A DNA stretch of 53,468 nt from a virus (Duplodnaviria > Caudoviricetes), in the IMG/VR virus record IMGVR_UViG_3300019132_000024, positions 1 through 53,468 of that record; one strand, 5' to 3'. Each line of letters begins with the position of its first letter. The stretch's first letter is position 1. The translations under genes were made by a program, and so were the position numbers. The notes under the pieces are model-generated. The model worked only from the letters and a program-made list of their open reading frames with translations. It made no database searches and had not been told where the DNA came from. Positions 5,793 through 53,446 of this stretch are shown piece by piece.

Positions 5793-6273
5793 AGGCGGAC
5801 CTCCTAAGGCTGGTAATCGGATATTGAGCCCAGACTACTGATCGGCCTTACACGGATCAGCACCAGGCGTTCTCGCTGCGGTCCGACATCACAGCCACAC
5901 GACCGTGGTTGTCAGAGGGGCCCGGCCCGCAAGGAATACATGGGCGCTTGGAGAGTAGCCTTCAAGCCTGACCATACAGGGGGCACTTCATGAGGAGCCC
6001 GATGGAGGGCCCGTATCATCGCCAGGCGTTTCCTGCTGTTTCACCTCGCTCGAATGCCGTGGGACGTGCTATCTGTCCCGAAGCTGCCGATCCTGTTGAT
6101 CTTCCGCGCTCAGGATCGTTGGTCAGGCTCACGTTGAGGTGTGCGGAGGCACCTCCGTGAGCCGCTTACCCCCGAAACACGCTCGCTTGGATAAAGACCT
6201 GATGGGCTCTGGGCGGACGCAGGCGGTCCGTATGGGGCTCAACCAATAGTTTCCACTAAAGGGGCTCTGCGAA

Positions 6274-30465: not shown

Positions 30466-32154
30466 TCAGCCCAGCACGAGCATTTGATATTCGGGCTTCC
30501 GCTCGTCCTTGCGGTCGCGAGACTTGAGCCCGAGCGCCATCGTCAGCGCCACAGCACCGTCAATCCGGAACCGGGCCTTGTTCTTGCCGATCTTGCGCCC
30601 GCCGGCCGGATCCGTGACCGCGACTGCGTTCGCCATGTTCCAGTTGAGCACCGGGTTGTTGCCGTGGATCAGCTTCCGGTCGATGACGGCCACCTCCATC
30701 GCGTCGATGGCGGGTGTCATGTCCCTGAAGCCCTGCCCCCACGGGATGATCCGCAGCCCGTCGCCCTTCTCGCCGTCTTTGTGCGAGGCGAAGTCGATGC
30801 GGTCGAACTCCTTGATCAGGTCGTCTATCCGCCAGCGGTCGTAGGCCATGCCGAGGACGCGGTAGCGCCCGTAGAGGTCTGCGATGTGCCGGGCGATCAC
30901 TTCCTTGTCGATCGAGCGGCCTGGCGTCGCCAGAAGGTGCCCCTGCTTGTGCCACTCGAGATAGCGATGGTTGCCCGAGCCGAAATCCCGGTTTGAATGC
31001 TCCTTCAGGAAGGCCTCGGGCTTCCAGAGGAACGGCCGGACCCGGGTCGGATCGCTCGCCGTGACCATCACGAGGGCCGTCAGGTCGTTCACGGACGACA
31101 GGTCGAGTCCGAGATAGACCTCCTCGCCCTCCTCGATGTCTGCATCCCCCTTGCAGGCCATCCATTCGGCCCGGGAGATCAGGGAAGCGACCGGCGCCAC
31201 GCGCTGGTTGAGGTAGAGGTTCCGGAACTTCGGCTCCTCTGCCGGCAGGCGCTTGGCCTTGTCGGCGATAGCCTTCAGATCCTCGAATGACCGGAAGTCG
31301 CCGAGAGCCGGGTTTGCCAGCCCCCAGCACTTGGGGTCGAAAATATCCTCTTGCTCTTCCGGCACCTCGTAGAGATGGCAGACGATGGTCGGATCCTGGG
31401 CGCTCAGACCGTCGTCAATGAGCTTCGACAGGATGTGCTCAGGGTCGTTGCTCTGCGTCGAGATCGTTACGAACAACGGCTCCGCGCGAGCACCCATCGA
31501 AGTATCAAGAACGTCATAAAGTTCGCGGTCTTTCGCTTGAGCGAGCTCGTCAAAGATGACGAACGACGGATTGAGACCATGCTTCGTCCCCGCCTCTGCC
31601 GAAATGGCCTTATAGAACGATCCATTGCCATAGCAGGCGATGGTTTTCGTGGAGTCGACGCACCGGAGCATCGCGGAGAGCTCGGGATCGGCCTTCACGA
31701 TCTGCGAGGCGACCTTGTAGACCTGTCCTGCCTGCTCCCGGTCGTTCGCTGCGGAGTAGATTTCCCCGTTCTGAATGGCTTCCGGCCCGATCAGGTGGAC
31801 GAGCACGAGAGCCGCGATCAAGGCCGTCTTGCCGTTCTTGCGGGCAATCGAGAGGATCGCCCGCCGCACCTGGCGCCGATACTGCCCCTTCGTGAGCGCG
31901 TGCGGCTCGTAGATGTCCCGGATGAACTCCTTCTGCCACTCCCGAAGGACGAACGGGCCGCCCTGACCTTCGCCGCTCGGGACGGTCAATGCCTCGATGA
32001 AGCGAATGACTCGTTCTGCCCGATCAGCCCGTCGAACTTGCTGGCCGGCTTTTCGTCCGGAAGCTTTAACGCGGCCCGGGCGACCGGATCGAGGAACAGG
32101 CGGGCGCCGATTGACAGCAGAAGCCGCGCCTGCTCGTTCATGTGCTTGAGCCAT
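30466..32154 (-). CDS. terL: Terminase large subunit (start uncertain)
   Basis: Walker A ARKNGKT, Walker B IFDE, GLDLS and IDGAVA nuclease motifs. Confidence 0.93.
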   Translation of the reverse strand: MAQAHERAGAASAVNRRPPVPRSGRPGRVKASGRKAGQQVRRADRAERVIRFIEALTVPSGEGQGGPFVLREWQKEFIRDIYEPHALTKGQYRRQVRRAILSIARKNGKTALIAALVLVHLIGPEAIQNGEIYSAANDREQAGQVYKVASQIVKADPELSAMLRCVDSTKTIACYGNGSFYKAISAEAGTKHGLNPSFVIFDELAQAKDRELYDVLDTSMGARAEPLFVTISTQSNDPEHILSKLIDDGLSAQDPTIVCHLYEVPEEQEDIFDPKCWGLANPALGDFRSFEDLKAIADKAKRLPAEEPKFRNLYLNQRVAPVASLISRAEWMACKGDADIEEGEEVYLGLDLSSVNDLTALVMVTASDPTRVRPFLWKPEAFLKEHSNRDFGSGNHRYLEWHKQGHLLATPGRSIDKEVIARHIADLYGRYRVLGMAYDRWRIDDLIKEFDRIDFASHKDGEKGDGLRIIPWGQGFRDMTPAIDAMEVAVIDRKLIHGNNPVLNWNMANAVAVTDPAGGRKIGKNKARFRIDGAVALTMALGLKSRDRKDERKPEYQMLVLG

Positions 32155-32465
32155 GGGTTCAGTACTGGTTGACCTTGAGACCCTGCCTCGACGTGCTTGA
32201 ACTCGGGCTTGTTCACCTCCTCCACGCAGCGCTTGTGCTCGGCCCAGGCGCTCGCATAGGCCGCGAGCAGGAAGGCGTCACAAGCTGCGTAGGTCTTCGG
32301 CGGCAGCGAGCGCTTGATGATCTCGATGCAAGCCTTCGCGTCGTCGCTCAGATGATCGGGGGCGACCACAGTGCCGCCAGCCACAATCGCTGTCTCAGGA
32401 ATAGGCCGCTTGCCGGGGTTGCCCTCAAGGCGGCGAGCCTCTGGGGACTTCCGTGGGCGTCCCAT
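31986..32465 (-). CDS. terS: Terminase small subunit, P27 family
   Basis: MGRPRK...LEGNPGKR...NPW...LDPVAR. Confidence 0.9.
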   Translation of the reverse strand: MGRPRKSPEARRLEGNPGKRPIPETAIVAGGTVVAPDHLSDDAKACIEIIKRSLPPKTYAACDAFLLAAYASAWAEHKRCVEEVNKPEFKHVEAGSQGQPVLNPWLKHMNEQARLLLSIGARLFLDPVARAALKLPDEKPASKFDGLIGQNESFASSRH

Positions 32466-32570: not shown

Positions 32571-32807
32571 CTAGGGCTTGGCCTGCCCGTCTGTGCGTGG
32601 GTGGCGATGCTGCACGAAACGAAAGGACCGCACGTCCATCACGTCACGTCCTCTCTGCCTCATCGCATTCAGCGGGTCAGCGTCGATCCACTCTTGCACT
32701 AGATCAGCATCTGACTGCGAGGTGCATGTGAGGTAGGTGCCATATGCCCTCACCCCGACCGGGACCGTTGACTGGCTCTTGCGCTGCTTGCTCATCCTAT
32801 CGGCCAT
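32571..32807 (-). CDS. Hypothetical protein
   Basis: Overlaps the HNH stop; same strand as the late operon. Confidence 0.4.
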   Translation of the reverse strand: MADRMSKQRKSQSTVPVGVRAYGTYLTCTSQSDADLVQEWIDADPLNAMRQRGRDVMDVRSFRFVQHRHPRTDGQAKP

Positions 32808-33130
32808 CCGTCTACGTCTACAGCCTGGAAGCGTCCTCGCTCCTCACGCTGCTTGTCCCTGTTGTGGTGTGTCTCACAAAGGCTCTGGGTGTTCTCGTAT
32901 TCGAAGAACAGGTCAGATTTGCCTTCGTGCCTCTTGATGTGATCCACAATCCAGGCCTTGCCGACCTTTCCCTCTGCCTTGCACATCCGGCACAGGGGCT
33001 CGTCTCTCAGCCTCTTGGATCGGATGGCGTACCACCGCTGTGTCTTGTACCAGGCGCGCCATGGCTTCTCGGCTCTGCGCTTGGCGTCATGCTCCCTGTT
33101 GCGGATCCGTCTATCGAGAGGGGCTGTCAT
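32792..33130 (-). CDS. Packaging-associated HNH endonuclease
   Basis: PLCRMC...VDHI...NTQSLCETHH; upstream of TerS. Confidence 0.9.
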   Translation of the reverse strand: MTAPLDRRIRNREHDAKRRAEKPWRAWYKTQRWYAIRSKRLRDEPLCRMCKAEGKVGKAWIVDHIKRHEGKSDLFFEYENTQSLCETHHNRDKQREERGRFQAVDVDGWPIG

Positions 33131-33283
33131 TCAGGCCAGAAGCAGGAAGCGCCGATGCAGCGGCGTGAGTGTCTTGCGGGTGGCGTGGAGCATGTAGAGC
33201 TGATTGCGCCGGGCTTCGGAGAGTTGGAGTTCCACCTGATTTTCTCTCAGGCTTTGGGCGAGGAAGCGGCGAAGGATGTCCAT
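33131..33283 (-). CDS. 50-aa late protein (MDILRRFL...), paralog of 34233..34352
   Basis: Translated by hand; stop abuts the HNH start. Confidence 0.55.
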   Translation of the reverse strand: MDILRRFLAQSLRENQVELQLSEARRNQLYMLHATRKTLTPLHRRFLLLA

Positions 33284-33713
33284 GGCTGCTCAAGCCAATC
33301 TATGGATCTTGCATCTGCGGTGGAACTCCTCTCAAAGTATAGCCTTGGGAGGATCGACCTATGCCGTTCAATGTTGGCGATGTCGTGCGTCTGAAAGGTC
33401 ACCCTACGCACAGGATGACGGTTGTCGAGATCAGGGACGACTGGGTCATGTGCCGATGGGTCGATAATTCCGGCCCTCAAGAAGGGGTGTTCTCGATCGA
33501 TGATATTGAATACATCCCGGAAACCAGCCAATGATCGTGCAAGATCTCCTGAATACTAGAAACCCAGCTTCTTAGCCCCAGAACGCAAAGCTAGGCATCT
33601 GCCCCTATAATGCCACAATAGTCCTTTTGGCTTATTCTCATCGGTCGAGCGGTGAGGCTCCCGATCTTTCAGGCGCAATGTTGCCCTCGAAGTACCCTGG
33701 CACGGAGGGCATT

Positions 33714-34010
33714 ATGTCCGGCCAAAGTCAGTTGCATCCTGTCTATAGAGCGTATGTGACCAGCCCTCTGGGACACATTCTCAATTCAGTTCATCTCGAC
33801 TGTGAGACGGACGAGCAAGCCATAGAGGAAGCCCGTCGTCTCGTGGGCGAGTACAGTGTCCAGCTATGGGATCGCGACCGGAAGATCGCATTCTTCCCTG
33901 CCCTCACCTCAACAGTCCCAGCTTCTCGGCCACGGTCTATGGTCCACGAACTTGGGCATTCACACAGGCTCTGCCAAGATGAGCGGACTTCCAAGGAAGA
34001 TTCCCTATGA
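33714..34010 (+). CDS. Small rhizobial hypothetical protein (moron)
   Basis: YRAY...GHI...CETDEQAIEEARRLV...VQLW pattern; GGAGG RBS. Confidence 0.65.
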   Translation: MSGQSQLHPVYRAYVTSPLGHILNSVHLDCETDEQAIEEARRLVGEYSVQLWDRDRKIAFFPALTSTVPASRPRSMVHELGHSHRLCQDERTSKEDSL

Positions 34011-34246
34011 GTTCCGAAGACACCCGCATCAAAGAACACATCCAGCGGCATAAAGACGGAAGCCTTTGGGCTAGAGGCCAAACCATCGATGGCGTCGCGA
34101 CCGGCTATTGGGAGTGGTTCAGGATCGATGGGACAAAGCTGCGATCAGGCTACTTCGAGAATGGCGAGCAGGTAGGCGAATGGACCACCTACGACAAAAA
34201 CGGCGAGGTTTACAAAGTCACCAAGATGAAGCCTAAGCCACCCTGA
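34007..34246 (+). CDS. MORN-variant (YwqK-like) repeat protein
   Basis: G.W..F..DG / G.W..YDKNG repeats; ATGA coupling to the upstream gene. Confidence 0.75.
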   Translation: MSSEDTRIKEHIQRHKDGSLWARGQTIDGVATGYWEWFRIDGTKLRSGYFENGEQVGEWTTYDKNGEVYKVTKMKPKPP

Positions 34247-34352
34247 TCGACGCCGCGATCATGTACAACTGATCCCGCAGCATCTCGGAGCGCTGCAGCT
34301 GGATCTGGTTCTCCCTCAGGGTCTGGGAGAGGAAGCGGAGAAGGATGTCCAT
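34233..34352 (-). pseudogene. Truncated paralog of 33131..33283 (MDILLRFLSQTLRENQ...)
   Basis: Similarity is lost after QLYM; GGGAG RBS retained. Confidence 0.5.
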
Positions 34353-34424
34353 GAGCCACGCTCCCTACTCAGGGCCAGGCGTGCCAGAAAGAGGGCGGGC
34401 AATTGCTTACCGACCCTCGATCTA

Positions 34425-34493
34425 TGGAGCGGGTGGGCGGTGCTGCCCCGCCGCCGCACGGGATGGGATCCCGCCGTTGCCTGCTTCACCCGC
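34425..34493 (-). ncRNA. D-armless tRNA-Gly(CCC)-like RNA with tmRNA-like D- and T-loops
   Basis: GCGGGUG/CACCCGC acceptor stem plus UCCA; GCGGG-AUCCCAU-CCCGU arm; GGCGG-GGCAGCA-CCGCC T arm; 12-nt unpaired D region. Confidence 0.75.
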
Positions 34494-34978
34494 GATACAG
34501 CAAGGATAGCAGGCGCCTGGTGCCCAGCAACTGAACTCCAGGACTACCTCAACAGCCCCGGCTTCTCAGCGTCAGAATGGCGCCCCCAAAAGGACTCGTT
34601 ACCGTGCCAGGTTGAGAAGTCGATGGGCGCTTAGCTGACCGTTGGCCTTTCAGGTGCGTCCCCGCCTCTAAGTTTTGCAAACTCTGGAGGCTCGCCATGC
34701 GATTAGGAAAAGCGCCGACGAATAGAGATGTCATCGGGCAACTGTTGCGCTGGTCCCTTAATCGACTTTGGATGATCACCGTCGCCGGCTTGTGCCTTTG
34801 GGGCACCATCTATGGCTTGAGCTAAGGACGTGCCCCAACGTCCCAAGATCCTGAGAAACAGTCTTTCAAAAGCCTCAAAGCCTCTATAGGATCCCAAGAT
34901 CAGCGGTTCCTTAGTCGGCTGCTGCCCTTTTGGGCGCATTGTGTGTCTCGAAGCTTACCTGGCTTTGGGAGACCCGCA

Positions 34979-35216: not shown

Positions 35217-35327
35217 ATGTTCGGAGATACGAAATCAAAGAGTAAGCACCCTTGGCTTGCGGCCATAGGCATTACAGGCATCGGTATACTCGGTCTCCTC
35301 ATAATGTGGGGTCTTAGCTCCGAATAA
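35217..35327 (+). CDS. 36-aa single-TM peptide
   Basis: GAGAGGG RBS; MFGDTKSKSKHPWLAAIGITGIGILGLLIMWGLSSE. Confidence 0.45.
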   Translation: MFGDTKSKSKHPWLAAIGITGIGILGLLIMWGLSSE

Positions 35328-35445
35328 GGCCTAGTCTCTCCGCGATGCTCTCCTCGACATACAGGTGAGGAGAGACTTCGACCATGAGACAGCCATCGTC
35401 TCGGCGATAGGTCTTGCGGGATTTTCTGGGCATTGATGATGACGC

Positions 35446-35623: not shown

Positions 35624-36193
35624 TCAAGTTAGTGAGCCTGCGGGCGTTTGCTCGCGCCCCGCTTTACGAAACAACGAGGCTGACCCGAGCCACAAGGCGA
35701 CGAAGACCGCCGTCAGAACCCAGGTGAAGTGTCCGGCGGCCTGAGCGATGGCGGCTACAAGTACCTGAGCGATCGACGCCGCCACCATGGCGCGCGCCAT
35801 TCCGTCTGGCTGAAAGCGCGCGATGACGGCACCGGCAAATGCCACTGCGAGCACACCGCCATACATTAAGTTGAAGGGATTATCTTCATTCCCAACGATG
35901 CCAACAGCAAGGTTCATCCATACGAGGATGAAAGCTGCCACGACCGCAATACCCACTCCGACTCGGTACGCGCCGTTGCCTGTCGCCCTCGCCGCCAGTT
36001 CGTAGGTGCCACAAGCGACGGCTAGCATTACGCCGAAGACGATAAAATCAGTCTCATCCCAATTCACTTCGTTGGTGAACTGCATTGCGATCAACGGCAG
36101 CAGAAGAAGGAACGCCGCGGTACCCCAAACCACTATCCTCCAACGGCTCCCATGCCGTCCGCTACCGTTTTGGGTTCTTCCTGCCATAGCCAT
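35624..36193 (-). CDS. Polytopic membrane protein (moron)
   Basis: Five to six hydrophobic helices; lower GC than the phage core; GGAG RBS. Confidence 0.75.
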   Translation of the reverse strand: MAMAGRTQNGSGRHGSRWRIVVWGTAAFLLLLPLIAMQFTNEVNWDETDFIVFGVMLAVACGTYELAARATGNGAYRVGVGIAVVAAFILVWMNLAVGIVGNEDNPFNLMYGGVLAVAFAGAVIARFQPDGMARAMVAASIAQVLVAAIAQAAGHFTWVLTAVFVALWLGSASLFRKAGREQTPAGSLT

Positions 36194-36236: not shown

Positions 36237-36890
36237 TTACTCCGCCGCCTCCAATCTCTGCAACTCTGTGGCCTTCATCCGCACCTTGGCCCCTCGACCG
36301 AGGAAGTCGATCAGCACCTCGACGCGGCCCTTGGAGAGCATGGACACGACATGGCCCTGGATGTCCGTGAATGCGCCTGCTGTGAGCCTGACCTGCTCGC
36401 CGGGGGCGTATTGGGGCCCAACGTCAGGCAGGCGGGTGAAGTCGAACTCGCCTGCCAGTTCCCGCTGAAGTAGCCTCGCCAGAGGATGCGGACGCTTCTC
36501 CTCGCCTTCCTTGGGCTCCGGAGCCGGGACGCGGGCAGGAACGCCGTAGCCGTCCCGCACGAGGCCCTCAACGCCGTCCACGCCGCGCATCTTGAAGAAG
36601 TCTTGCCCTGGCCGGATGCCTAGGAACAGGTAGCGCGGGAAGAGCGGGTTCTCGCGGGCTTCCTTCTTCCTGGCGTGCACGACCCATCGCTTGGTCTGGG
36701 GCAGATACGTCTCATACCCCGCACGACGGAGGCCGAACTGCGCCCTCCTCTCGCACTTGGGATTGCAGACGACCACGAACCAAGTGAGGCCGTCGAAGGT
36801 CTCGGGCGGATCGTGGTTGACGATCGGAGAGCGGAAGTAGTGAACGCTACCGGGGTCGGCAGAGAGGGCGAAGCGAGGGAGGTTCGTCAT
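36237..36890 (-). CDS. NusG-paralog transcription antiterminator
   Basis: WFVVVCNPKCE...PLFPRYLF NGN domain; GEQVRLTAGAF...G.V KOW domain; lies in the lambda Q position. Confidence 0.88.
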   Translation of the reverse strand: MTNLPRFALSADPGSVHYFRSPIVNHDPPETFDGLTWFVVVCNPKCERRAQFGLRRAGYETYLPQTKRWVVHARKKEARENPLFPRYLFLGIRPGQDFFKMRGVDGVEGLVRDGYGVPARVPAPEPKEGEEKRPHPLARLLQRELAGEFDFTRLPDVGPQYAPGEQVRLTAGAFTDIQGHVVSMLSKGRVEVLIDFLGRGAKVRMKATELQRLEAAE

Positions 36891-36891
36891 G

Positions 36892-37125
36892 CTACACACC
36901 TTCCAGAACGGCGGGGGCGCGAGAGACCCGGCTCTTGACGGCTCCTCCTGACCGAACGGCATTCTTCCGATCAGCCTTGGTCATATGCCTCTTGGCGTCC
37001 CGAGAAGCTGCCAGCTTGCGAGCGGCTGACTGCAAAGACGCCTTCAAATTCGGATCGTCCGTTGCCGGGATAGCGAGAGAGCAGATCCGGAGGAGAGCGT
37101 CGTATTCGTTGAAACCGAGCCTCAT
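36892..37125 (-). CDS. Hypothetical protein
   Basis: ATGA coupling with the upstream gene. Confidence 0.55.
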   Translation of the reverse strand: MRLGFNEYDALLRICSLAIPATDDPNLKASLQSAARKLAASRDAKRHMTKADRKNAVRSGGAVKSRVSRAPAVLEGV

Positions 37126-38009
37126 GCCGCGGCCCTCCCGTAGCCATGGGCTGCCAGGACATGAGCGGGGATCTTGCAGCCGGGCATGTCAGGCGGGAGC
37201 GACCACTTGCCGTAGGACCAGTGCTTGGTCCGTTTCCAGCCCTCGATGGCACGGTTCCACACGTCGTCGGTGAACACTTCGTCGGGGTTGTAGGGCTTGG
37301 CGGCGGGCTCCTCCTGCGGCTTGGTCGCGGCGGCTTCCTTCAGCCGGTTGTCGAAATAGGACAGAGCCGAGATATCGGGCTTTCGGGCAAGGCCTTCGCG
37401 GATCACCGAAATGATCAGCTCGGGCGAGAAGCCGTTCGCCAGCCAGACCCTCGCCCGGCCTGGATGGGGCGGGATGGCGCTACCGGCTTCGCAGAAGGCC
37501 TGAGCAATTTCGATCTGCAAGCGAGCATAGGCCGCGTCGATCTCCGGCGCGCGGGTACTACCCTCTACAGAACTTACTAGCTCTCTATTCTTCTCTTCTC
37601 TTCTCTGGTTCGACAGTGTTGAAGCGTTTGCTTCGCGCGGTTCGTTATTTTCCAACGACTTAGCGCGCGCTAGTCCGCTGTTAGTTCCACCCTTGTGCCC
37701 GGCTACTCGACGCTTACTCGCCACGTACTCCCGGTCTAGTAGCTCTTTACCCACCCTGTCGTTGGTCAGTAGACGGTCCTCTGTGACACGGATTTTGCCC
37801 GCCTGAATGAGGGCATTGAGCAGCGCCGTCGCCTTCACATGACCGCAGCGGAAGATGACGCAGAGCAGCCGCTTGGAGTTCGGAATAGGCCCGTGGCGGC
37901 GATACATCTGGTGGCACAGGCGAAGATATGCGGCCTCTTGTTCAAGCGTTAGGTCAATGGTGCCCTCGTCCCAGGCCTCGAAGTCCATCTTGTAGAATTC
38001 GCCCTTCAT
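37122..38009 (-). CDS. Replication initiator-like protein (DUF1376/YdaU N-terminus)
   Basis: FYKMDFEAW...LTLEQEAAYLRL...AGHKGG; adjacent to DnaB. Confidence 0.75.
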   Translation of the reverse strand: MKGEFYKMDFEAWDEGTIDLTLEQEAAYLRLCHQMYRRHGPIPNSKRLLCVIFRCGHVKATALLNALIQAGKIRVTEDRLLTNDRVGKELLDREYVASKRRVAGHKGGTNSGLARAKSLENNEPREANASTLSNQRREEKNRELVSSVEGSTRAPEIDAAYARLQIEIAQAFCEAGSAIPPHPGRARVWLANGFSPELIISVIREGLARKPDISALSYFDNRLKEAAATKPQEEPAAKPYNPDEVFTDDVWNRAIEGWKRTKHWSYGKWSLPPDMPGCKIPAHVLAAHGYGRAAA

Positions 38010-38011
38010 GA

Positions 38012-39430
38012 TCAGAACTCCGACAATTCGCTAACGACGTTGCAGTTGATGGCGCAGAAGAGAGTGGCGCGGCCCGTTGGCCCCTGGCGCTGCTTCAGGA
38101 TCTCGATCTCCAGCGTGTCCCTGCTGGCTTCCAGCTTTGCCAGATCCTCGGGCGTGGGGTTGGCCTTGTGTTCGAGGTAGTAGGCCTCCCGGTAGAGGCC
38201 GATCACCATGTCCGCGTCCTGCTCGATGGACCCGGAGTCGCGGAGGTCGGAAAGCTGAGGGCGCTTCTCCTCGCGCTTTTCCGTCTCGCGGGAGAGCTGT
38301 GAGAGCACGACCACGGCCACACCGAGTTCCTTGGCGAGAACCTTGATGGCACCCGTGATCTCGGTGATTTCCTGCACCCGGTTGCCGGAATACCGCTTGG
38401 TGGCTTGGATCAGGCCCAGGTGATCGATCACCACCACGGAGAGCCGTTGCCCCTTGCGCTCCATGTTGGCGCGGGCCTGACGGGCGCGCGCGGCGATCTG
38501 GGAGATGGTGAGCCCCGGTTGCTGCTCGATCTCGAGAGGGTAGCGATTGAGGCGCTTCTGAGCCTCGCTGAGTGCCCAGAGGTCTTCGTCCTTCAGATCC
38601 TTGCCCTTGGCGATGTCCCGGTAGGAGAGCGGGTTCCGATGACGAGGAGAGAAAACAGAGGCAGCCAAGGCACGCTCTGCGAGCTCCTGAGCGGCCATCT
38701 CGAGCGAGACGAAGTAGACGCCATGCCCAGCCTTTGCAGCATTGAGCGCAATCGCGACACCGAACGTCGTCTTGCCCATGCCAGGGCGCCCGGCCATGAC
38801 GACCATCTGTCCAGGCCGCAGCCCGAGGGTCATGCGGTCGAGGCTCGGGATGCCGTAGGGCGCCCCGCGCTCGATCCGGCCCTCACGGGCGGCCATGGCG
38901 GCCTCGATGGCCTGCAAGGACGCCTCACCCAGGCTCACGCGCTTGATGCTCGCTGGCAGGCCGGCGCTGGCCACCTCGTCCAGCTCCTGGATCATGGCGG
39001 CGGCGAATTTGGCAGGGTTGTCTACCGCACCGGCTGTCATCGCCTTTACGGCATCTTGGGCCGTAGCCAGAACCTTCCGCATCATGGCGGCGTGACGGAT
39101 CGCCCGAGCATAGTCCGGGGCGTTAACGACCGTCGTGGCGTGGGTGTAGAGGACAGCGATGTACTGACCGACCGTCACCCCACCGAGATCGGCGTTACCG
39201 ATGGCGATCCGGACCAAGCGGCTGTCGATGGCCTCGCCAGCGTCCCGACGTTCGCACATCTTGCGGAAGATTGAGCCATTGACCTCGATGTGGAAGTCGG
39301 CTGGATCAACGATCCCACGCACCCGGTCGATAACGTCGGGGCTATGGAGAATTGCACCTAGCAGCCCCTCCTCTGCCGATTGGGCATGGGGCTGCTCGAT
39401 GTAGTCGCGCGGAGTGGTTTGGGCGGTCAT
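38012..39430 (-). CDS. dnaB: Replicative DNA helicase, DnaB family
   Basis: AGRPGMGKT, SLEM, VIDHLGL, LSQLSR and DLRDSGSIEQDAD motifs. Confidence 0.95.
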   Translation of the reverse strand: MTAQTTPRDYIEQPHAQSAEEGLLGAILHSPDVIDRVRGIVDPADFHIEVNGSIFRKMCERRDAGEAIDSRLVRIAIGNADLGGVTVGQYIAVLYTHATTVVNAPDYARAIRHAAMMRKVLATAQDAVKAMTAGAVDNPAKFAAAMIQELDEVASAGLPASIKRVSLGEASLQAIEAAMAAREGRIERGAPYGIPSLDRMTLGLRPGQMVVMAGRPGMGKTTFGVAIALNAAKAGHGVYFVSLEMAAQELAERALAASVFSPRHRNPLSYRDIAKGKDLKDEDLWALSEAQKRLNRYPLEIEQQPGLTISQIAARARQARANMERKGQRLSVVVIDHLGLIQATKRYSGNRVQEITEITGAIKVLAKELGVAVVVLSQLSRETEKREEKRPQLSDLRDSGSIEQDADMVIGLYREAYYLEHKANPTPEDLAKLEASRDTLEIEILKQRQGPTGRATLFCAINCNVVSELSEF

Positions 39431-41785: not shown

Positions 41786-41877
41786 TCATCGGCTCGCTCT
41801 CCTGATCAGGACATAGCCGTCGTGGGTGAGGAACCAGAGGTGGCCTTGGGCACAGAGGCGGTAGCGGGCGCGCCGCA

Positions 41878-42099
41878 TCACGCGGCCTCGTCGGTTAACG
41901 CCGCAGGCTCCGTCTTAATCCACTCCGAGGCAGGAACAGCTCCCTCAGTGACATCTTCGATCCGAACGGCCACGGCTAACGAGGGCTTCCGCTCACCGTA
42001 CTTGAGCTTGCGGATGCCGTGCGAGGTGATGGAGCCGACGCGAACCGCCATCGTCTCGTCATCAAGGGCGTTTGCACGCATGTATTCGATGAGTTTCAT
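41878..42099 (-). CDS. cro: Cro-like HTH repressor
   Basis: Divergent from cI; GERKPSL...IEDVTEGAV pattern. Confidence 0.85.
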   Translation of the reverse strand: MKLIEYMRANALDDETMAVRVGSITSHGIRKLKYGERKPSLAVAVRIEDVTEGAVPASEWIKTEPAALTDEAA

Positions 42100-42107
42100 G
42101 GGCAGAG

Positions 42108-42193
42108 ATATTCCCCTTAAGGGGGAACATTGTCAACCCCTAGAAGGGGAAGGACAAGCCCAACCGTTTGATGCGATTTTCCCCTCTATGGGG
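42108..42193. promoter_or_regulatory. OR/PR region: three CCCC-N5-GGGG operators (42113, 42137, 42181) and TTGACA -35 (42136-42131, minus)
   Basis: Palindromic repeats flanking the -35 box between cro and cI. Confidence 0.8.
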
Positions 42194-42907
42194 ACAAACC
42201 TGCGAAGACTGAGGACCGCCAAGGGCTGGACGCATGAAGAAGCGGCCCAGCAGATGGGCATTTCGCGTGGGCAGTTTATCAAGCTGGAGCGTGGCGAGCG
42301 GCAGCTCACGGATCGAACCATCGCACTTGCGGCAAAGGCCTTCGGGGTCAGCAAGGGCGAGATCGTTGATGACAGCCCTCCCCCAGCGCCTCGGGCTCAC
42401 CCTGACAGCACGGTCGAGGAGCTGCCGGCCGGGGACGCGTTCACCTTCGCGAAAATTGACGGCTCGGTGCAGGCCGGCGCGTTCCTCGCGGTCGAAGCCT
42501 TTGACGACGACCTGGGCGAAGTGATCTCGGCCCCACGCGACCCGGCCTTCCCATTCGCGCGGCAGATCGCCTATCGGGTCAAGGGCGATTCCATGAACCG
42601 CGCTCAGCCCAAGCCGATGAACGAGGGCGATGTCATCATATGCGCAGCCTGGGAGGACGTCGGGCTAAAAGAAAAGGACGGCCTGAACGTTGTCGTCCAG
42701 CAGACCACTGCTGACGGCCAGCTCCGGGAGCGCTCCGTCAAGGAAATGCGGGTATTCCCTGATCGCATCGAGCTCCACCCCCGGTCTAGCAACCCGGCCC
42801 ACAAGCCTATCGTGGTGGACCGGCAGTATCACACGGACGATGGCAAGGAGGTCAGCATCCTTGCACTGGTCCGGTTCGTTTTTGATAACCAGGCGCTGCC
42901 GGTGTAG
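42188..42907 (+). CDS. cI: CI-like repressor, XRE HTH plus S24 peptidase
   Basis: LRRLR..KGWT HTH; VQAG cleavage site; GDSM Ser and SVK Lys. Confidence 0.92.
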   Translation: MGTNLRRLRTAKGWTHEEAAQQMGISRGQFIKLERGERQLTDRTIALAAKAFGVSKGEIVDDSPPPAPRAHPDSTVEELPAGDAFTFAKIDGSVQAGAFLAVEAFDDDLGEVISAPRDPAFPFARQIAYRVKGDSMNRAQPKPMNEGDVIICAAWEDVGLKEKDGLNVVVQQTTADGQLRERSVKEMRVFPDRIELHPRSSNPAHKPIVVDRQYHTDDGKEVSILALVRFVFDNQALPV

Positions 42908-48841: not shown

Positions 48842-49084
48842 ATGGGAAGGGTACAACCCTCTCATAGCCTGCCGCCTTCCCTGCCCCCGCGCGGGCTCAA
48901 CCGCGAGCAGGCTGCGGCCTACATCGGCGTGGGCTTGAGCAAGTTCGACGCTATGGTCGAGGATGGGCGCATGCCGAAGCCAAAGCGCGTCGACCGTCGC
49001 AAGGTCTGGGACATACGTGCCCTCGATTTGGCATTCGACGACCTTCCAGGTGATGATGCCAGCGAGACCAACGAATGGGATTAG
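48842..49084 (+). CDS. xis: Excisionase / AlpA-like HTH
   Basis: PRGLNREQAAAYIGV...GRMPKP...WD...LD; immediately upstream of the integrase. Confidence 0.8.
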   Translation: MGRVQPSHSLPPSLPPRGLNREQAAAYIGVGLSKFDAMVEDGRMPKPKRVDRRKVWDIRALDLAFDDLPGDDASETNEWD

Positions 49085-49086
49085 CG

Positions 49087-50112
49087 ATGGCGCAGATCAG
49101 ACTGCCCTACGTTCAGGAGTTCGTGGACCGACACGGTAAGGTCAGGCGGTATTTCCGGAAGAACGGCAAGCGCACCCCTCTGCCCGGATCACCGGGATCC
49201 AGGGAGTTCCGGCTGGCCTATGAGGCTGCCCTTGCCGGTAACTGGGAGGCGGACGTCAAGGACAAGAACACGTCTCCACCCGGCTCGATGAGCCGCCTGA
49301 TTGCCCTCTACTATTCGTCAGCTACCTTTAAGGGTCTGGAGCGGATCACGCAGGCCAGCTATCGCAACGAGATCGAGAAGATCCGCCTCGCCCACGGCGA
49401 GAAGCGTGTGGCGATGCTCCGCCGCGATCACGTCAAGAAACTGTTTGCAGAGAAGGCAGACAAGCCTGGCGCCGCCAACAAGTTCCTACGACACATGCGG
49501 ACGCTGATGCGATTCGCCATCGATGAGGGTTGGCGCACCGACGATCCAACCTTCGGCATCCGTAAGATGAAGATCAAGAATGGCGGCTTTCGCGCCTGGA
49601 CCGATGACGACATCGCGGCCTTTGAGAACAAATGGCCTATCGGCACGCGCGAGCGGCTTGCCCTCTCGCTCCTGCTCTATACAGCCCAGCGCCGCTCCGA
49701 TGTCATCCGCATGGGCTGGCAGCACGTCCGCAATGGCATGATCCAGGTCCGGCAGCAGAAGACCGGCACACCACTTTGGATTCCGATTCATCCGAAGCTG
49801 GATGCCGTGCTGCAGGCCACGCCGCGCTCCAACATGACGTTTCTCATCACAGCGCAGGGCAAGCCGTTCACGTCGGCTGGGTTCGGCAATTACTTTTCCG
49901 AAGTTTCTCGCGAGGCGGGATGCTCTGAGGGGTGCTCCGCCCACGGCCTGCGGAAGGCTGCAGCGCGCCGCTTGGCAGAAGCTGGCTGCACGTCAAAGCA
50001 GATACAGGCTATTACCGGCCACAAGAGCCTAGATGAGGTTGAGCGCTATACTAAAGAGGCCGAGCAGGTACTGCTGGCTCAGCAGGCGATGGCGCTTGTT
50101 AGCTCTGACTGA
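49087..50112 (+). CDS. int: Tyrosine integrase
   Basis: TAQRRSD (R), QQKT (K), HGLRK and TGH...Y catalytic set. Confidence 0.95.
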   Translation: MAQIRLPYVQEFVDRHGKVRRYFRKNGKRTPLPGSPGSREFRLAYEAALAGNWEADVKDKNTSPPGSMSRLIALYYSSATFKGLERITQASYRNEIEKIRLAHGEKRVAMLRRDHVKKLFAEKADKPGAANKFLRHMRTLMRFAIDEGWRTDDPTFGIRKMKIKNGGFRAWTDDDIAAFENKWPIGTRERLALSLLLYTAQRRSDVIRMGWQHVRNGMIQVRQQKTGTPLWIPIHPKLDAVLQATPRSNMTFLITAQGKPFTSAGFGNYFSEVSREAGCSEGCSAHGLRKAAARRLAEAGCTSKQIQAITGHKSLDEVERYTKEAEQVLLAQQAMALVSSD

Positions 50113-53369: not shown

Positions 53370-53387
53370 ATGGTGGGCCCGGCAGGA
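53370..53387 (+). repeat. att core, right copy
   Basis: Identical to 82-99; overlaps the tRNA 3' end. Confidence 0.93.
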
Positions 53388-53446
53388 CTCGAACCTGCAA
53401 CCAGACCGTTATGAGCGGCCGGCTCTAACCATTGAGCTACAGGCCC
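53371..53446 (-). tRNA. tRNA-Ile2 (anticodon CAT, lysidine type)
   Basis: 76-nt cloverleaf GGGCCTGTAGCTCAATGG...CT-CAT-AA...TTCGAGT...ACCA; C4-G69/C5-G68 TilS determinants; no initiator C1 mismatch or GGG/CCC anticodon stem. Confidence 0.92.

Follow-up and report, generated by a model that had tools for sequence, protein, structure and literature searches.

Virus record IMGVR_UViG_3300019132_000024 of IMG/VR, a member of the Caudoviricetes analysed here over its full 53,468 nucleotides (hereafter the window, meaning that whole stretch), contains on its minus strand at 34425..34493 a 69-nt RNA gene resembling a tRNA-Gly without a D arm. The window is a prophage of ~40 kb flanked by host genes, and the RNA lies in a variable accessory slot upstream of the HNH and terminase genes of this prophage, which has no gene for the DNA-modification protein Mom. 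The element was delimited by reading of the sequence, RNAfold, blastn relatives, a covariance model (R1) and covariation. It had first been described as a phage-encoded tRNA-Gly(CCC)-like RNA with the loops of an alphaproteobacterial tmRNA, and this original prediction stands in part: the RNA is under selection, bears glycine marks and has tmRNA-like loops, whereas decoding through CCC, and the use of the loops as proof of a tmRNA or SmpB role, are not supported.

Fold and flanking signals of the window RNA

Read along the minus strand from 34493 to 34425, the RNA has a perfect 7-bp acceptor helix (GCGGGUG/CACCCGC), a D region, AAGCAGGCAACG, whose 12 nt are all unpaired at the position of a D arm, a middle arm in which a 5-bp stem encloses AUCCCAU with CCC in the loop, a 5-nt variable stretch, and a T arm with a perfect 5-bp stem and the 7-nt loop GGCAGCA. 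The 3' end consists of U73 and an encoded CCA. The acceptor, T stem, loops, U73, CCA and missing D stem had all been read exactly as they stand in the sequence. RNAfold finds the same three helices, but pairs 32-38 and 33-37 as well, so that the middle arm has 7 bp and a triloop of CCC. As a single sequence in G+C-rich DNA the fold is not significant (z -1.16), with 21 of 200 shuffles equally stable.

Both the D arm and a T-psi-C-type T loop of a canonical tRNA are absent. ARAGORN and Rfam, which had been proposed as checks along with the prediction, were run and return nothing at the site: ARAGORN makes no call at default settings, mitochondrial mode included, and there is no Rfam match at the gathering score, nor any at E≤10, including RF00005 (tRNA) and RF01849 (tmRNA). 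RF04321 likewise has no match at the RNA. Relaxed ARAGORN settings gave two to seven calls in the surrounding 351 nt that contradict each other, and these were discarded as noise. None of the public sequencing runs listed for this stretch is an RNA run.

A hairpin followed by UUUCU lies at 34386..34418 on the minus strand, starting 6 nt past the CCA, and is likely an intrinsic terminator of the RNA gene. It had been noticed from the letters alone and proves far more stable than its shuffles (-20 kcal/mol, z -4.09; none of 200 shuffles as stable). A strict consensus scan for promoters and terminators finds nothing on the strand of the RNA; the hairpin is missed by it because the U-run holds only four U. 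The two nearest relatives, L011 and L284, have a hairpin and U-run of unrelated sequence in the same place (-24.8 and -25.2 kcal/mol), and the terminator is thus retained at the same position in three of three phage copies.

On the other side, alignments point to promoter-like hexamers at 34503..34530 (minus strand), TTGCTG at 34530-34525 and TATCCT at 34508-34503, separated by a 16-nt spacer and ending 9 nt 5' of G1. They score under the threshold of the consensus scan. Hexamers are retained in L011 (TTGCGC/TAACCT) and L284 (TTGCTC/TATCCT), so that the window copy, L011 and L284 form a phage subgroup with hexamers at fixed 16-nt spacing and unrelated spacer sequences.

A covarying family mostly joined to mom genes

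The first relatives were obtained by blastn of a 161-nt stretch against 80 loci chosen by their terminase gene, before any model had been built. They comprise L011 as well as L059 and L061, the last two matching over exactly the 69 nt, and they carry compensatory changes. A gapped pattern constructed from these three relatives then found 78 viral contigs, five of which (three distinct sequences) are coding look-alikes, and 90 genomic stretches, of which 23 have seven of seven acceptor pairs and the other 67 at most five; one of the 67, L161, is a true copy carrying a 1-nt deletion. An exact 28-nt pattern has no match in the viral contigs. Queried by blastn with the 2 kb surrounding the RNA and with a high-scoring member of the family, the 50,697 GenBank phage records yielded no match either.

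Covariance model R1, with a seed of 69 sequences including that of the window, recovers 102 matches, 72 of them distinct, in 100 sources, and across viral contigs, genomes and metagenomes covariance modelling finds more than 170 related copies. The window RNA scores 73.2 bits (E 1.7e-15), being itself in the seed alignment. Over the 102 matches 94.5% of cells are paired as against 73.0% in shuffles, a value reached by none of 500, and both sides have changed in 13 of 18 base pairs. The covariation score, from an alignment fitted to R1, is 0.546 as compared to at most 0.096 with slid partners. Because members had been pre-filtered for at least six of seven acceptor pairs, the values are inflated for helix 1 and for no other; covariation is also seen in the T and middle helices, to which no filter was applied. 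Because the relatives carry compensatory changes a chance fold is excluded, and by the evidence of covariation the window RNA is a real, selected RNA gene. The homolog covariance model and covariation test that had been suggested with the prediction thus find the fold conserved, and the argument made there against simple decay of a tRNA is borne out by a covarying family in place of a one-off decayed gene.

Most relatives outside the window are physically joined to genes for Mom. In 68 of 86 distinct contexts a Mom-family open reading frame (ORF) of ~240-280 aa runs on the same strand into the RNA and stops 4-100 nt beyond it. Four of four ORFs tested belong to PF25680 (E 1e-42 to 1e-54), and the Mom domain ends ~10-17 codons 5' of G1 of the RNA. 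A second conserved block of the RNA falls in reading frames that vary between loci, and it is therefore the RNA and not a peptide that is conserved. A ParB-domain gene lies 5' of mom in 59 loci, with terminase genes 3'.

The link is also seen from the side of the protein. An independent sample was drawn from the best 80 of 526 viral loci found by the Mom domain alone, and 73 of the 80 have an R1 match that follows the Mom match at 40-60 nt; in one of the seven negative loci the sequence ends 12 nt past the Mom match. When 42 such loci were run through ARAGORN, no tRNA was called in any. The isolated Psychrobacter phage vB_PmaS_Y8A, found through its Mom protein and not through the RNA sequence, has in order Q, ParB, Mom, two tandem unannotated copies of the RNA, TerS and TerL.

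Several details of these loci are of separate interest. In the 68 Mom-linked loci (for example L103:2177-2920 (-)) the mom frame always crosses the RNA and meets a stop only afterwards, and G1 is the third base of a codon that is followed by K-Q-A. Excision of the RNA would strip the mom message of its stop codon, and this could possibly couple production of a carrier to Mom dosage. Tandem pairs of the RNA after mom occur at L195:1499-1567/1574-1642, L246:970-1038/1045-1108, L329:2292-2360/2362-2429 and L381:2162-2229/2234-2302.

The acceptor end is almost invariant in the family. The Mom-selected sample contains 62 distinct RNAs, all of which have GCG at the 5' end and U73; CGC precedes U73 in 59 and CCA is present in 55. 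In all 62, too, an A bulges out of the T stem on its 3' strand, and the stem around the bulge covaries perfectly. G3 and C70 are invariant in 69 of 69 seed sequences, though not forced by the search pattern. When both samples are pooled into 131 distinct RNAs, 95 of them have a middle hairpin loop of 5 nt (chiefly GACCA or GUCCA), 21 one of 3 nt and three one of 7 nt. CC is present in this loop in 126 of the 131, and a U two positions 5' of the first C (U33) is found in only 26 of these 126. The window RNA carries the full set of G1-C72, C2-G71, G3-C70, U73, CCA and the middle-loop CC. The determinants of bacterial glycyl-tRNA synthetase (GlyRS) are given as G1C72, C2G71, C35, C36 and U73 (PMC10464925), in agreement with the glycine identity originally read from the window copy, which extends, in acceptor end and CC, to the whole family. 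The acceptor helix of the window RNA and that of a Bosea tRNA-Gly(UCC) agree in six of seven pairs and differ at pair 7-66, a comparison that is the one useful row from a pattern search otherwise giving hundreds of chance matches. Three Mom-linked copies (L347:1144-1219, L324:1297-1372 and L346:1325-1400) have U70 and thus the G3-U70 alanine determinant, with U73 kept.

The only features that stay fixed in the family are those recognised by the synthetase, together with a peculiar elbow, and those required for decoding on the ribosome (D arm, T-psi-C-type loop, 7-nt anticodon loop with U33) are lost or drift. Since the middle loop is usually of 5 nt and U33 is mostly missing, the RNA is not a decoder, and the designation tRNA-Gly(CCC) fails in that sense. 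A 7-nt loop with U33, CCC and A37, as a working tRNA-Gly(CCC) reading GGG on the ribosome would need, can be drawn for the window copy only, but such a role is already contradicted by the missing D arm and T-psi-C-type loop, by the closing of 32-38 and 33-37 in RNAfold, by the loop lengths and scarcity of U33 among the relatives, and by the failure of ARAGORN and the Rfam tRNA model to detect the gene; we consider it scarcely credible.

With Gly-tRNAGly as donor, Mom is reported to attach glycine to N6 of adenine in double-stranded DNA, to accept all three E. coli isoacceptors and to reject Gly-tRNAAla, and its authors suggest that mainly the 3'-acceptor end is read (PMC13219725). Because Mom uses Gly-tRNAGly and an RNA with glycine marks is embedded in mom, we infer that the embedded RNA may be Mom's private glycine carrier. 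A 'non-ribosomal Gly donor' had been among the guesses offered for the window RNA, and it fits a family most of whose members are physically joined to mom genes. A phage-encoded tRNA-like partner of Mom is not mentioned in the main texts of the two Mom papers.

The embedding also bears on a quite unlikely alternative, in which the tRNA shape would serve only to bring RNase P and RNase Z to a phage transcript, for cleavage or for stability, and aminoacylation would play no part. The RNA is part of the mom ORF in the Mom-linked forms, so that excision would truncate the message, as such a handle would have it. However, an acceptor and T arm would suffice for that purpose, which leaves the invariant G1-C72, C2-G71, G3-C70, U73 and loop CC unexplained together with the exclusive link to an enzyme that uses Gly-tRNA, and the window copy is followed by a terminator of its own, with no message attached.

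The likeness of the loops to alphaproteobacterial tmRNA holds for the two tmRNAs that were compared, those of Bosea and Microvirga, both with the T loop GGCGGUA and the D region AAAUAGGAUCGAC. The elbow of the window RNA (GGCAGCA with AAGCAGG) resembles theirs (GGCGGUA with AAAUAGG), and this is a resemblance only. The acceptor of these tmRNAs is GGGGGCG/CGCCUCC-A-CCA, as against G3-C70 and U73 in the window RNA, which lacks the alanine identity G3-U70 and A73, has no mRNA-like part, is unpermuted in its 5'-3' order and is followed immediately by a terminator. The Mom-linked relatives form a series that runs from D-armed 76-nt forms with T loops TTCAATT or TGCAAxT, through intermediates with TGCGACT or TGCAACA, to D-armless forms with GGCAGCA or GGCGGCA, and all of these states have the same glycine acceptor end and the same T-stem bulge. 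It is therefore probable that the tmRNA-like loops go back to tRNA-Gly, and stepwise reduction of a tRNA-Gly would be the simplest reading of the origin of the family, with the tmRNA-like elbow probably convergent or a by-product of D-arm loss.

This series undercuts the step that had been taken from the loops to a function with tmRNA or SmpB. An RNA that mimics the tRNA-like domain of tmRNA would bind SmpB and either enter stalled ribosomes or titrate SmpB, blocking or redirecting trans-translation. The missing D stem, the paired likenesses of T loop and D region to the Bosea and Microvirga tmRNAs and the GGCGGCA T loop of some Mom-linked relatives speak for it, but we regard it as very unlikely given a glycine-type acceptor in place of G3-U70/A73, the lack of any Rfam tmRNA signal at E≤10, the descent from tRNA-Gly suggested by the graded series from tRNA-type T loops and D-armed forms, a conserved partner that is Mom and not SmpB, and the lack of a resume codon or tag frame. 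Neither tmRNA descent nor SmpB binding is needed to explain the RNA. Two genomes have a second, weaker alpha_tmRNA match, Microvirga vignae (G003:C19:11163-11545, 155 bits) and Methylobacterium nigriterrae (G004:C215:854-1209, 104 bits), which may be island- or prophage-borne copies.

Free-standing copies and the prophage slot

The window RNA is filed as a member of a free-standing sister class and not as a Mom-linked one because there is no Mom in the 53-kb window; a divergent Mom among the unannotated window proteins was considered and ruled out by tblastn and by a profile built from 62 Mom proteins. The class was known from 16 contexts after the first searches and from 38 after a metagenome scan, and it consists of the window copy, L011 and L284 together with about 35 contexts, chromosomal or metagenomic, in DNA of Hyphomicrobiales type. 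Its members have in common the acceptor GCGGGUG, a conserved 5' flank and the lack of Mom. In the window this flank includes, beyond the hexamers, a further conserved region seen in alignments of free-standing copies at 34531..34558 (minus strand) with the block GAGGTAGTCC at 34550-34541, of which diverged versions are present in all free-standing copies, and blastn conservation with other such copies extends to -65. The possibility that the flank is a decayed mom 3' end was ruled out, nhmmer in both directions giving a best E of 0.64.

The loops and acceptor end are intact in the 38 distinct free-standing contexts, and inside the subclass there is still covariation in the middle stem (CG 27/UA 4, GC 24/CG 4, AU 21/GC 7 and GC 27/AU 3). 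The T-stem bulge is U, G, two bases or absent; the window copy, whose T stem has no bulge, is the only gap at that column among 69 sequences, and L284 also lacks it. A bulge that is free to vary while the middle stem covaries is as expected if the constraint from Mom has gone and others remain.

The neighbours of the free-standing copies are ordinary and mutually unrelated host genes. Assorted tRNA genes are found 30-720 nt away from several of the copies, a setting like that of island borders. Only two of 121 genomes of one family have the RNA under stricter filters, with 42 candidates scored per genome, and the same count gives no support to the idea of a conserved host gene. Most non-phage copies have ~25 nt downstream another aberrant sequence of tRNA type, in which the T loop is an ordinary GUUCAA-type one and the anticodon loop, containing UCC(A), is enlarged, as at L293:1493-1568 (+) and L219:2703-2779 (-), and similarly in L223, L281, L285, L294, L297, L237, L239, L240, L279, L283 and L299. 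ARAGORN reads one of these second sequences as having a four-base anticodon (tcca) and one as 'SeC (tca)', and leaves most uncalled.

The prophage around the window copy is bounded on the left by host genes for an RTX metalloprotease and an HWE kinase and by a terC RNA (Rfam RF03067, 55.4 bits; 5874-5933, minus), and on the right by an RTX-repeat protein gene and a tRNA-Met (CAU) at the right end of the window (53371-53446, minus). It encodes an integrase (49075-50109) and a CI-like repressor (41822-42904), and then, all on the minus strand, DnaB (38012-39430), a DUF1376 protein (37122-38009), a NusG-like protein (36237-36962; PF02357, E 1e-13), a membrane protein (35624-36193), a small conserved ORF (35314-35433), a further small ORF (34233-34352), HNH (32792-33130), TerS (31986-32465) and TerL (30466-32154). 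A variable stretch of ~1 kb on the minus strand between the two small ORFs contains the RNA. That the RNA marks an attP site was ruled out by the covariation of its two acceptor strands and by the distance of 14.6 kb to the integrase.

The NusG-domain gene is conserved in all close relatives and occupies the place that Q has in lambdoid phages; Psychrobacter phage Y8A has its Q gene at the corresponding position. Between it and the late genes lies a conserved hairpin with a strong terminator (35524-35445, minus), consisting of a GCACUC/GAGUGC hairpin and then a GCCGCC...GGCGGC hairpin with a six-U run, located 3' of the NusG-like gene and 5' of the late genes. Its first 39 nt (35524-35486) are 100% identical in L007 and L017, phages otherwise only 75-80% identical. 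This element is a candidate late-leader terminator and antitermination target.

Relatives with a 75-92% identical terminase share the blocks on either side of the RNA but not the variable stretch. Among them L011 alone has the RNA in this slot, while L001, L002, L003, L007, L014 and L017 are without it, and the RNA is therefore accessory cargo and not a core gene of the phage lineage. Close by, window positions 34278-34354 and 33216-33284 (minus strand, ~70 nt each) both match one place in L001, L007 and L011. This direct repeat corresponds to the start of a small ORF and brackets the region of a MORN-repeat gene (34007-34246, plus), an arrangement that resembles a cassette insertion.

Candidate function and relation to known systems

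We propose, at a probability of about one half, that the window RNA is a small RNA gene belonging to a family of reduced tRNA-Gly derivatives, chargeable glycine carriers unfit for the ribosome that would have evolved together with Mom, and that the window copy is an offshoot without Mom. The RNA would be excised by RNase P and 3' processing and glycylated by host GlyRS, becoming a private, non-ribosomal carrier of glycine. In Mom-linked forms this carrier would supply Mom, the enzyme that moves the glycine of Gly-tRNAGly onto N6 of adenine in DNA. The window copy would be transcribed from its own promoter-like site, end at its own terminator and be a chargeable carrier whose consumer is something other than Mom.

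Several observations weigh against this proposal. The RNA was not found in the isolated Mom phages Mu, JD024, PAN70, pAEv1818 and Riggi, and Mom thus does not need it. The GlyRS LpGlyRS is reported to require the arms as well as the full L shape (PMC10464925), so that charging of a D-armless RNA is not assured. In the window tblastn finds no Mom, and the best E of the Mom profile against its 309 ORFs is 1.5; none of five genomes holding free-standing copies has Mom, the same search being positive in five of five Mom-linked genomes. No protein neighbour is shared among the 38 free-standing contexts, the large clusters being translations of the RNA region only. With no Mom and no shared neighbour the carrier has no visible consumer here, and given the lost T-stem bulge the window copy could be drifting.

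Several facts would be expected of an orphaned remnant, transcribed but useless, if the free-standing copies descend from mom-RNA cassettes that lost mom. The lack of Mom in the window and in all five host genomes, the position in a hypervariable slot, with the RNA shared among the terminase relatives by L011 only, the sporadic occurrence in two of 121 genomes of one family and the relaxation of the bulge, an A in 62 of 62 Mom-linked RNAs, to U, G, two bases or nothing are all of this kind. We nevertheless find it doubtful that the window RNA is such a remnant. Compensatory changes maintain the middle stem within the free-standing class, loops and acceptor end are intact across its 38 contexts, the upstream hexamers and downstream terminator persist as sequence within and between them changes, and the 5' flank has no trace of mom coding sequence.

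A decoy is another alternative. By imitating the acceptor end of tRNA-Gly the RNA might absorb enzymes that act on Gly-tRNAGly, such as TacT-type GNAT toxins or the Mom of a superinfecting phage, and the prophage would gain protection or exclusion. The acceptor helix of tRNA-Gly of the likely hosts is kept and the decoding parts are not, the copies are carried by a prophage and at island-like spots near tRNA genes without a partner gene, and TacT acetylates Gly-tRNAGly (as cited in PMC13219725). On the other hand, no toxin or defence gene recurs beside the free-standing copies, and the conserved CC and elbow would be superfluous in a pure acceptor-end decoy; this role is unlikely.

If the window RNA is instead a chargeable glycine carrier, as we prefer, the free-standing subclass might tentatively be viewed as a dedicated carrier for a second, Mom-independent, tRNA-dependent glycyl transfer, whose D-armless, tmRNA-like elbow would keep the charged RNA off EF-Tu and the ribosome or pass it to a factor such as SmpB. 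Many non-phage copies are paired with a second, aberrant tRNA-like gene (8-nt UCCA-type loop), which suggests a small module of two RNAs that has its own function.

Use of charged tRNA-Gly by Mom for DNA modification was shown only recently, in a 2023 preprint and a 2026 Nat Commun paper. If the proposal is true, such a carrier, encoded by the phage, unfit for the ribosome and built into mom genes, would be the first case of a DNA-modifying enzyme with a private RNA cofactor. The family would also be a natural experiment on the tRNA features that GlyRS and Mom need, in which the acceptor end, discriminator, two Cs and elbow are kept and the D arm, U33 and T-psi-C loop discarded. Since standard tRNA finders and Rfam miss these genes, they are unannotated in phage and prophage records, and in many records the annotation shows the RNA merely as the last part of the mom ORF. 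The free-standing subclass, in which the carrier would persist without Mom, points to another consumer or a decoy role. Psychrobacter phage vB_PmaS_Y8A with its two copies offers a bench system.

Reduced and diverted tRNAs have precedents. The D-armless mitochondrial tRNAs of animals are functional and still decode with 7-nt anticodon loops; the window RNA is like them a tRNA-type molecule without a D arm, but it is not a decoder. In Staphylococcus, non-proteinogenic tRNA-Gly species feed peptidoglycan bridge synthesis. As is proposed for the window RNA, these are glycine carriers for a non-ribosomal transferase, and their T-loop region is altered, but they have a full cloverleaf and are encoded by the cell, whereas the window RNA has neither a D arm nor a usable anticodon loop and its class is phage- or island-borne. 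With the alphaproteobacterial two-piece tmRNA domain (RF01849) it shares the lack of a D stem, a T loop of the form GGC-R-G-Y-A and a D region AA-nn-AGG; that tmRNA differs in its alanine identity (G3-U70, A73), its permuted gene, its mRNA part and its overall length of ~350 nt.

The systems nearest in chemistry and in gene order involve Mom itself. The host tRNA-Gly used by Mom of phage Mu (Silva et al., PMC13219725; bioRxiv 10.1101/2023.03.24.534169) has, like the RNA described here, a glycine-type acceptor end, and the acceptor end that Mom is suggested to read is what stays invariant in the R1 family. Mu, as reported there, uses ordinary host isoacceptors, and it was found here to be without an RNA of that family. 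Within the literature covered on a mom-linked tRNA-like RNA only McMurdie et al. 2011 (PMC3146451) describe one, and a mom-embedded tRNA-Gly-like RNA is in that respect already known, without a link to Mom chemistry. Their account of the Dehalococcoides ssrA islands reports a 76-bp tRNA-Gly-like 'pseudo-tRNA' inside a mom homologue, with no functional link made. It has a complete tRNA-like fold and lies in the first 150 bp of the gene, whereas the window RNA has 69 nt, no D arm and a GGCAGCA T loop and is not joined to mom. The wider family nonetheless resembles the Dehalococcoides locus as reported in having a conserved tRNA-Gly-like RNA within a Mom-family gene that follows a ParB-domain gene, the same order being found here in 59-68 of 86 contexts.

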